10,192 nucleotides of DNA from a virus (lineage: Duplodnaviria; Heunggongvirae; Uroviricota; Caudoviricetes), in the IMG/VR virus record IMGVR_UViG_2547132077_000007; one strand, written 5' to 3'. The position numbers and the translations under genes were made by a program. The notes under the pieces are model-generated. The model searched no databases, was not told the DNA's origin, and worked only from the letters and a program-made list of their open reading frames with translations. Position 1 is the stretch's first letter. Each line of letters opens with the position of its first letter. Positions 10,063 to 10,138 of the stretch are shown piece after piece.

Positions 10063-10068
10063 TGAAAC

Positions 10069-10103
10069 CTCGTAGAATCTGGTGTGTTAACCGATTCTAC
10101 GAG
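10069..10103 (-). promoter_or_regulatory. Perfect 11-bp inverted repeat with a 13-nt spacer, overlapping the Shine-Dalgarno of the first gene; candidate operator or translational-control hairpin
   Basis: Arms CTCGTAGAATC (10069-10079) and GATTCTACGAG (10093-10103) are perfect reverse complements around the spacer TGGTGTGTTAACC. On the mRNA the 3' arm ends 6 nt before the ATG and contains three of the four GAGG Shine-Dalgarno bases. Each arm contains TAGAAT, a -10-like hexamer (minus-strand copy at 10094-10099). Confidence 0.5.
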
Positions 10104-10138
10104 TAGTCATTTGTCCATTGAGTGGGAATATCACACAA

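Follow-up and report, generated by a model that had tools for sequence, protein, structure and literature searches.

A predicted translational gate formed by an inverted repeat at the late promoter LPsit of P1-like phage-plasmids

The transposase gene of the insertion sequence (IS) IS10 is reportedly protected from impinging transcription by a "fold-back inhibition" that is attributed to the 1985 work of Davis, Simons and Kleckner. The transposase gene of IS200 is guarded from impinging transcription by a terminator and a stem-loop that sequesters the Shine-Dalgarno (SD) sequence (PMC4513863). For the genes e, soc, 49 and I-TevI of phage T4, it has been established experimentally that the late promoter lies within a hairpin that sequesters the ribosome-binding site (RBS; McPheeters et al. 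1986, reviewed in PMC3014915). Early T4 transcripts that arrive from upstream carry the sequestering helix, with an effect of about 100-fold in the case of gene e, which encodes lysozyme (PMC3014915). Here we analyze an inverted repeat in a 10,192-nucleotide (nt) stretch of Caudoviricetes DNA, the IMG/VR virus record IMGVR_UViG_2547132077_000007, which in its full length is called the window below. The repeat is located at LPsit, the late promoter of the gene pmgC in phage P1, and probably constitutes a promoter-in-hairpin translational gate of the T4 gene e type.

Sequence comparison revealed that the window is about 97% identical to phage P1 and its relatives, with 96.8% identity between the two PmgC proteins. 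The minus-strand genes of the window are pmgC, tub, pmgB, sit, pmgA, bplA, 16 and R, and the list of open reading frames (ORFs) together with the P1 annotation shows that pmgC heads a tail and baseplate operon, pmgC-tub-pmgB-sit-pmgA-bplA-16. A preliminary description of this DNA had suggested that the repeat may be the control point of the structural operon, which agrees with the position of LPsit in the P1 annotation. A repeat search recovered the two arms as they had been described, each 11 nt long, 100% complementary and 13 nt apart; among perfect inverted repeats with spacers of up to 30 nt, it is the longest in the window. The term "35-bp perfect palindrome" is nevertheless too strong, as the symmetry does not extend to the 13-nt spacer. 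On the coding (minus) strand, the elements follow each other in the order …AAC AAATGACTA CTCG TAGAAT C GGTTAACACACCA GATTCTACGAG GTTTCA ATG… (Table 1). The SD sequence GAGG overlaps the end of the 3' arm and is separated from the ATG by 5 nt (TTTCA); the distance of 6 nt given earlier is that from the end of the arm to the ATG.

Of the 11 nt in the 5' arm, 6 belong to the -10 hexamer of LPsit. Both this hexamer and a "-22 region" are annotated upstream of pmgC in the GenBank records of P1 (AF234172) and P7 (AF503408), and these annotated features align base for base with the window; no match to a C1 operator was found. The preliminary description, which had proposed comparing the element with known P1 late promoters, was thus right to expect an activator-dependent late promoter lacking a well-spaced -35, although it overlooked the -22 box AAATGACTA (10112..10104) just outside the repeat. 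It had also seen TAGAAT in each arm. This holds for the upstream arm on the coding strand (10099..10094), but the downstream arm contains only the mirror image on the plus strand (10073-10078), outside any promoter context, and a divergent promoter reading from this mirror image was rejected, as it has neither a -22 box nor a -35.

Membership in the class of P1 late promoters would imply dependence on Lpa (and on the host protein SspA) and a start about 7 nt after the -10. Eleven late promoters requiring the phage activator Lpa are described for P1 (PMC10695390; PMC8198154). The segment AAATGACTA-CTCG-TAGAAT at 10112..10094 fits AAC-AAGTGACTT-N4-TAnAAT, the consensus of the 11 annotated P1 late promoters, among which LPsit and LP26 share the same box and the same -10. 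The pattern AARTKACTW-N4-TANAAT occurs twice in the window, against 0.02 occurrences expected, both times on the coding strand at the start of an operon (LPsit, and LPs upstream of R). When both strands of the region 10040-10140 were scanned with a sigma-70 consensus, no promoter was detected, LPsit having no -35. The 4-nt promoter spacer varies among the other P1 late promoters; at LPsit it is fixed as CTCG, the complement of CGAG in the SD region.

No transcript includes the -10 of the promoter from which it starts. Because the -10 of LPsit sits inside the 5' arm, late mRNA lacks this arm and cannot form the hairpin, and any start at least 2 nt downstream of TAGAAT leaves out the whole arm. 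Judging from the position of the hexamer, the late start is predicted at about 10089-10085, in the loop and 5-9 nt after the -10, which corresponds to about 46603-46599 in P1. Both arms occur together only in RNA that comes from upstream, and burial of the SD sequence is therefore limited to read-through transcripts. In the proposed mechanism, RNA polymerase acting together with Lpa would start transcription within the loop, about 5-9 nt past the -10, and the late pmgC mRNA would have a leader of about 25 nt (AACACACCAGAUUCUACGAGGUUUCAAUG) without the 5' arm, leaving the SD sequence comparatively accessible. Transcripts initiated further upstream, at the sim genes in P1 and at unrelated cargo genes in P7, JK004 and Salmonella plasmids, would carry both arms; they would fold into a hairpin of 11-14 bp that buries the GAGG, plus the AUG in the JK004 type, and pmgC would remain untranslated. 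The opening energies given below suggest that translation from read-through RNA would be reduced by about one to two orders of magnitude. Untranslated pmgC could in turn allow Rho-dependent polarity and so silence the rest of the operon. The gate presupposes that read-through transcripts occur in vivo.

Folding calculations showed a clear contrast between the two kinds of RNA. The 41-nt element folds as RNA at -19.7 kcal/mol, compared with -5.35 +/- 2.25 kcal/mol for its shuffles (z = -6.4, with 0 of 200 as stable), whereas an RNA starting in the loop, at 10088, reaches -3.2 kcal/mol (z +0.26) and has no significant structure. Opening the RBS (-12..+3) costs about 14 kcal/mol in read-through RNA versus 6.8 kcal/mol in late RNA, and opening the 30S footprint about 20 versus 7.9 kcal/mol; these costs are unchanged for every assumed start from 10089 to 10085. 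The RBS sequestration put forward in the preliminary description is accordingly predicted for the two-armed RNA, but the late mRNA lacks the 5' arm, so that the hairpin would gate read-through and not late expression. The covariance models of Rfam 15 gave no match at E<=1 in the region 9400-10192. An intrinsic terminator was rejected as an explanation of the repeat, since the stem is followed by GUUUCAAUG (GUUGGCAUG in JK004) and not by a U-tract, and a terminator scan was negative here. A direct repeat on the plus strand (10037-10046 and 10096-10105) reflects a resemblance between codons 7-9 of pmgC (CTCGAAGA) and the 5' arm. In late mRNA, these codons are able to pair with the SD region, which costs about 4 kcal/mol; the pairing is probably incidental, because it is not conserved in JK004 (CTTGAACA).

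Table 1. Features of the LPsit-pmgC region of the window
Feature	Position	Strand	Basis and remarks
pmgC (188 aa)	9496..10062	-	ORF list and P1 annotation; ATG at 10062
SD sequence GAGG of pmgC	10068..10071	-	sequence; paired in read-through fold, largely free in late RNA
3' arm GATTCTACGAG, overlapping the SD sequence	10069..10079	-	sequence, repeat search, folding
Loop GGTTAACACACCA, holding the predicted late start	10080..10092	-	start predicted from the -10, ~10089-10085
5' arm CTCGTAGAATC = promoter spacer CTCG (anti-SD), -10 hexamer and one further base	10093..10103	-	sequence, repeat search
-10 hexamer TAGAAT of LPsit, within the 5' arm	10094..10099	-	minus_10_signal annotation in P1 and P7
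-22 box of LPsit AAATGACTA, presumed Lpa-dependent element	10104..10112	-	P1 and P7 annotation; adjoins the palindrome upstream
3' half of an intrinsic-terminator-like hairpin with T-run (…ATTAAAGGGCGTTTTATTGTTTT), downstream of simC	10170..10192	-	sequence; cut by the window edge

The arrangement can be set beside the known systems point by point. As in T4 genes e, soc, 49 and I-TevI, a helix would bury the SD sequence and/or the AUG in RNA initiated upstream, the effect at LPsit being a folding prediction. The late promoter is located in the DNA coding for the helix's 5' strand, late transcripts lack that strand, those of T4 being translated, and the arrangement is conserved in relatives. 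T4 late promoters, however, consist of a bare TATAAATA that is read by the phage sigma factor gp55, whereas LPsit combines a sigma-70-type -10 with a -22 box that requires Lpa. Moreover, the T4 device serves early-versus-late timing in a lytic phage, whereas at LPsit the likely role is insulation of the tail operon of a temperate phage-plasmid from upstream genes expressed in the prophage. The likeness to IS10 and IS200 is that transcripts of outside origin include a segment complementary to the RBS and go untranslated, in the case of LPsit by prediction; LPsit further resembles IS200 in that, in the P1-type context, a terminator is combined with a helix that masks the SD sequence. In contrast to LPsit, the IS10 and IS200 systems keep the transposase gene permanently low, and the IS200 helix is also present in the element's own mRNA, whereas the strong late promoter of pmgC itself would bypass the block.

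The length of the repeat is only mildly unusual: 12 of 200 dinucleotide shuffles hold an equally long or longer inverted repeat anywhere in the 10 kb (p~0.06 for length alone). Its non-randomness rests on position and conservation. We compared leaders from 160 IMG/VR matches (many contigs of which were retrieved twice), 50 metagenome contigs, P1, P7, 673R5 and four genome contigs. In more than 200 P1-like loci, which represent 13 distinct P1-type leader haplotypes, neither arm varies, while the last three bases of the box, five positions of the loop and two positions of the spacer between the SD sequence and the ATG vary. Variable positions thus number 0 of 22 in the arms versus 10 of 28 in box end, loop and spacer (Fisher p=0.0013), and the arms remain without variation (0/13, p=0.017) when the -10 hexamer and GAG are left out. 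The metagenome scan of 50 contigs yielded no new lineage; the one aberrant arm among them occurs in a contig of 0.9x coverage and is probably an error. The scan of genome contigs yielded four close relatives. Two contigs of 2.8-2.9 kb, L096 (JAFAFU010000002.1) and L097 (DXHF01000172.1), are P1-like and 97% identical to the window, and are filed under GTDB species representatives that are metagenome-assembled genomes of a "Bacillota bacterium" and of "Candidatus Paenibacillus intestinavium"; they are most likely mis-binned Escherichia coli phage-plasmid DNA.

These data bear on the possibility that the pairing has no selected function, the -10 and the SD sequence being conserved separately and the remaining bases hitch-hiking in close relatives. 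Most sampled loci are indeed 96-99% identical, nine of the 11 pairs never vary, an equally long perfect repeat is present in 6% of shuffled windows, and the design is not common to other P1 late promoters. The arms are nevertheless significantly more conserved than box end, loop and spacer, even without the -10 and GAG, and the promoter spacer, which is free elsewhere, is fixed as CTCG at LPsit. In addition, a double change from G:C to A:U has taken place in two clades with no broken intermediate sampled, and the helix persists through full replacement of the loop (see below). We therefore consider an unselected pairing unlikely.

Upstream of the -22 box, the sampled loci show nine unrelated contexts, including the sim genes, lipoprotein and membrane genes in P7, and YfjT-family genes, and the homology among these contexts starts at the box. 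This observation is relevant to a different explanation, namely that the hairpin acts on the late mRNA itself, the real start or another relevant promoter lying upstream of the 5' arm, and serves as a constitutive brake or as a switch opened by a factor. The start of LPsit is predicted from the -10, and the P1 record predicts sigma-70 promoters, P1-P3pmgC, upstream. The hexamer is, however, the annotated -10, at the canonical 4 nt from a consensus -22 box. Conservation begins exactly at this box and the lineages are unrelated further upstream, so that no conserved upstream promoter exists, and the predicted P1pmgC would transcribe directly into the simC terminator. An action of the hairpin on late mRNA is therefore quite improbable.

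More distant leaders were obtained by collecting PmgC homologues down to about 40% identity with tblastn and a protein search and comparing the DNA upstream of them. P1-type loci, including the window, have the arms CTCGTAGAATC and GATTCTACGAG around the 13-nt loop GGTTAACACACCA or variants of it. Cronobacter phage JK004 and its relatives (PmgC 74% identical) have the arms CTCGTAAAATC and GATTTTACGAG around a 12-nt loop, GGCTGAAGATCC. The same arms are found in Salmonella plasmids (76%; loop GGTTGAAGATCC) and in the contigs L185/186 (78%; loop GGAAGATGATCC), and Klebsiella aerogenes (75%) combines the loop GGCTGAAGATCC with the 3' arm GATTTTGCGAG. TAAAAT/ATTTTA replaces TAGAAT/ATTCTA in all four lineages. 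The perfect 11+11 repeat is kept in JK004, the Salmonella plasmids and L185/186, where the change of G to A in the -10 is matched by a change of C to T in the other arm; in K. aerogenes, a U-A pair has become U.G, a change that RNA pairing tolerates but that destroys the palindrome at the DNA level. L178 and L180 form a third clade (PmgC 68% and 65% identical to that of the window; 86% identical to each other). L178 has TAGAAT…TTTCTGAGG and L180 has TAAAAT…TTTTTGAGG, so that the split between G:C and A:U recurs as a second event, in a stem that is symmetrically 2 bp shorter.

Formal covariation analysis was applied to 16 collinear haplotypes, with L178 and L180 left out of the pair count and examined by hand and by folding. 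All 176 of 176 pair cells hold standard pairs, compared with 27-44% in slid registers. One pair is compensatory (GC in 12 haplotypes, AU in 4) and wobble occurs at one other pair; the observed covariation score was reached in 1 of 500 shuffles, and RNAalifold recovers the same helix unaided. No broken intermediate of the double change from G:C to A:U was seen among the sampled lineages. Loop sequence and length (13 or 12 nt) are free between lineages, and the helix survives complete replacement of the loop. The covariation is real but thin, and it favors RNA pairing over a protein operator, because the helix is kept with a compensatory change, a U.G wobble, and loops of differing sequence and length.

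The preliminary description had called the element a textbook operator for a dimeric protein, and a protein bound to the two 11-bp half-sites, covering the -10, could repress or modulate LPsit. A perfect inverted repeat does overlap the -10, and symmetric changes in both arms could equally reflect co-evolution with a binding protein. The geometry is unfavorable to this idea: the half-sites are 24 bp apart from center to center (about 2.3 helical turns) and thus out of phase, the distance is 23 bp in the JK004 type, L178/L180 have arms that are 2 bp shorter, and the K. aerogenes variant breaks the DNA symmetry while keeping a U.G pair. Furthermore, the arm sequence has no other copy at <=1 mismatch in the 94.8-kb P1 genome, and at <=2 mismatches there are 7 other P1 sites versus about 24 expected. 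The best match to a C1 operator has 8/17 mismatches, and no candidate protein is known. The operator does not survive this comparison well, and we regard it as very improbable.

Some diverged leaders show additional features. In the JK004 and Salmonella leaders (L086:645-705 and L092:645-705), the helix extends outward, with CAAC of the -22 box region pairing with GUUG after the SD sequence. In the JK004 type, CAUG in the box (UAUG in Salmonella) pairs with the CAUG that includes the start codon; the activator box would therefore help to mask the AUG in read-through RNA. L178 and L180 (positions 780-900 in both) have CAAGCAACAAGAC upstream of the TAGAAT/TAAAAT hexamer, following a strong terminator, instead of the P1 -22 box, and this motif is tandemly repeated in L180 (AAGCAAC AAGCAAC AAGAC), which suggests that the late activator of this clade recognizes a different sequence.

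In contexts of the P7, L029 and JK004 types, the end of a same-strand ORF lies 8-30 nt ahead of the -22 box and no terminator-like structure is present within 300 nt; any transcription of those genes would therefore be structurally bound to run into the leader. A translational gate could conceivably let P1-like phage-plasmids take up foreign cargo expressed in the prophage immediately ahead of the tail operon with no terminator between them and, together with Rho polarity, act as a portable insulator at the boundary of a recombination hot spot, an extension that we offer only tentatively. The same contexts would also suit a role in RNA processing or stability, in which the helix in upstream transcripts is a site for RNase III or another nuclease, or a 3'-end stabilizer of the upstream mRNA. 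Processing could separate the mRNA of upstream cargo from that of pmgC, and cleavage could even free the RBS. This account relies on the same helix, covariation and read-through dependence as a translational gate, and it fits the several lineages in which upstream genes adjoin the promoter with no terminator in between as well as the JK004-type fold, which reaches 16+4+4 pairs (up to about 24 bp with bulges) and takes in the -22 box and the AUG. The P1-type helix of 11-14 bp is, however, short for RNase III, and the steady inclusion of the SD sequence in the 3' arm is better explained by occlusion, which is also how the experimentally established T4 precedent acts (PMC3014915). A processing or stabilizing function is thus an unlikely primary reading.

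The P1 genome allowed the generality of the arrangement to be assessed. The pre-start segment of each late promoter was paired with its own SD sequence and compared with a null set of 110 mismatched promoter/SD pairs; the segment was ended 6 nt after the -10, which removes part of the anti-SD sequences of LP23 and LPdar and makes the test conservative for these two. LPsit is the only outlier among the 11 promoters (-19.7 kcal/mol, with 0/110 controls as stable). LP26, identical to LPsit in box and -10, and the other P1 late promoters have no comparable fold-back. LPpac is suggestive at -11.7 kcal/mol (5/110 controls as stable). Its box and spacer (P1 AF234172 90475-90531; L005:42975-43031) contain CUUUCGU, which is perfectly complementary to ACGAAAG at the SD region of pacA, and LPpac may be a further but weaker example of the fold-back seen at LPsit. 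LP23 (AF234172 58773-58843) has an anti-SD sequence directly after the -10, TAAAAT|CTCTTCC…GGAAGAG-taaa-TTG, and LPdar (AF234172 31183-31230) has one just after it, TACCAT-ta|CCTCCT…AGGAGG. Both were suspected of sharing the LPsit design for this reason, which the mismatched-pair control did not support: with the shortened segment, LP23 and LPdar were unremarkable against the 110 mismatched pairs.

The preliminary description had also pointed to homologous loci. The helix is kept in the P1-type loci and in the lineages with 74-78% PmgC identity but is absent where pmgC follows bplB. The latter holds for D6 (L087), Pantoea (L088), Citrobacter (L089), V. vulnificus (L091), L189 and L190, in all of which pmgC comes directly after bplB with neither promoter nor hairpin; the element is therefore tied to pmgC heading an operon. 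In P1, bplB and pmgC are about 7 kb apart, with pmgF, rlfAB, repL, kilA, ant, icd, c4 and sim between them. Since bplB and pmgC are adjacent in the D6, Pantoea and Vibrio relatives, LPsit and its hairpin may have arisen when this immunity and lytic-replication block entered a once-continuous morphogenesis operon between the two genes. A V. alginolyticus plasmid (NZ_CP054704; L090:660-700) has a non-homologous hairpin, CCACT-ACCGG-AGTGG, on the GGAG of its pmgC homologue, after a 263-nt gap, and this may be an analogous RBS-masking structure.

Several points weigh against a translational gate at LPsit. A terminator-like hairpin lies between simC and LPsit in the window and P1 context, about 70 nt upstream of the -22 box in the window, where its 5' half is beyond the edge; in P1 it is complete and reaches -11.7 kcal/mol, with a T-run, in the terminator scan. 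As this terminator intervenes, read-through in this genome is possibly low and the gate partly redundant, handling terminator leakage only. The start position of LPsit is a prediction from the -10, and silencing of pmgC alone would spare tub, sit and the rest of the operon unless polarity follows. Opening the late mRNA is not free either; some 4-7 kcal/mol are needed, due in part to UCUACGAG pairing weakly with CUCGAAGA (codons 7-9). The -10 and the SD sequence are expected to be conserved regardless of pairing; covariation is confined to one of the 11 pairs (two events) and wobble to one, the nine others being invariant and uninformative. The helix is weak in L178 and L180 (-12.3 and -8.5 kcal/mol), and the leaders of L188 and of the V. 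alginolyticus plasmid are non-homologous although pmgC heads the operon there. Finally, the design is not general, the set of 11 promoters giving an overall permutation p=0.18.

Two intergenic regions of the window show further features of their own. The interval between the simC terminator and LPsit differs from that of P1 (window 10113-10169 vs P1 L001:1520-1618): the window has a tandem 15-bp duplication on the plus strand at 10139-10168, TCAGGTTGCTTTGAG / TCAGGTTGTTTTGAG, of which P1 has a single copy, and about 50 nt of P1 (accatatcat…cagacaaca) are missing from it. The context CCCACTCAATGGAC between terminator and promoter is also found in a few IMG/VR loci (L006, L007 and L065). The second late promoter of the window, LPs (AAGTTACTT-CTCT-TACAAT, 1834-1852, minus strand), is preceded by a GC-rich hairpin (CACCCCG…CGGGGTG, 1855-1877, minus strand) that has no T-run, lies between the stop codon of gene 16 and the -22 box of LPs, and is also present in P1. 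It could be a read-through barrier or a stabilizer of the RNA end.

The promoter LPsit itself is already annotated; the hairpin and its consequence are the new part within the literature covered. At LPsit, the annotation in the GenBank records AF234172 and AF503408 is limited to the promoter with its -22 region and -10, and includes no stem-loop or translational element. In the papers that were read, neither a mention of a hairpin at LPsit nor a map of P1 start sites was found. The element is small, sharply bounded and readily tested by compensatory mutations. P1, a classical model phage, serves as a workhorse in transduction and in phagemid packaging, and LPsit has been used to drive genes in engineered P1 systems. 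If the hairpin acts as proposed, including or omitting the bases upstream of the -10 when LPsit is cloned, or placing pmgC under a heterologous upstream promoter, would give very different translation. It would also extend the T4 logic of a late promoter inside an inhibitory hairpin to a sigma-70-type, activator-dependent promoter of a temperate phage-plasmid, and it would explain how the tail genes stay silent in lysogens even when expressed cargo abuts the operon without a terminator.

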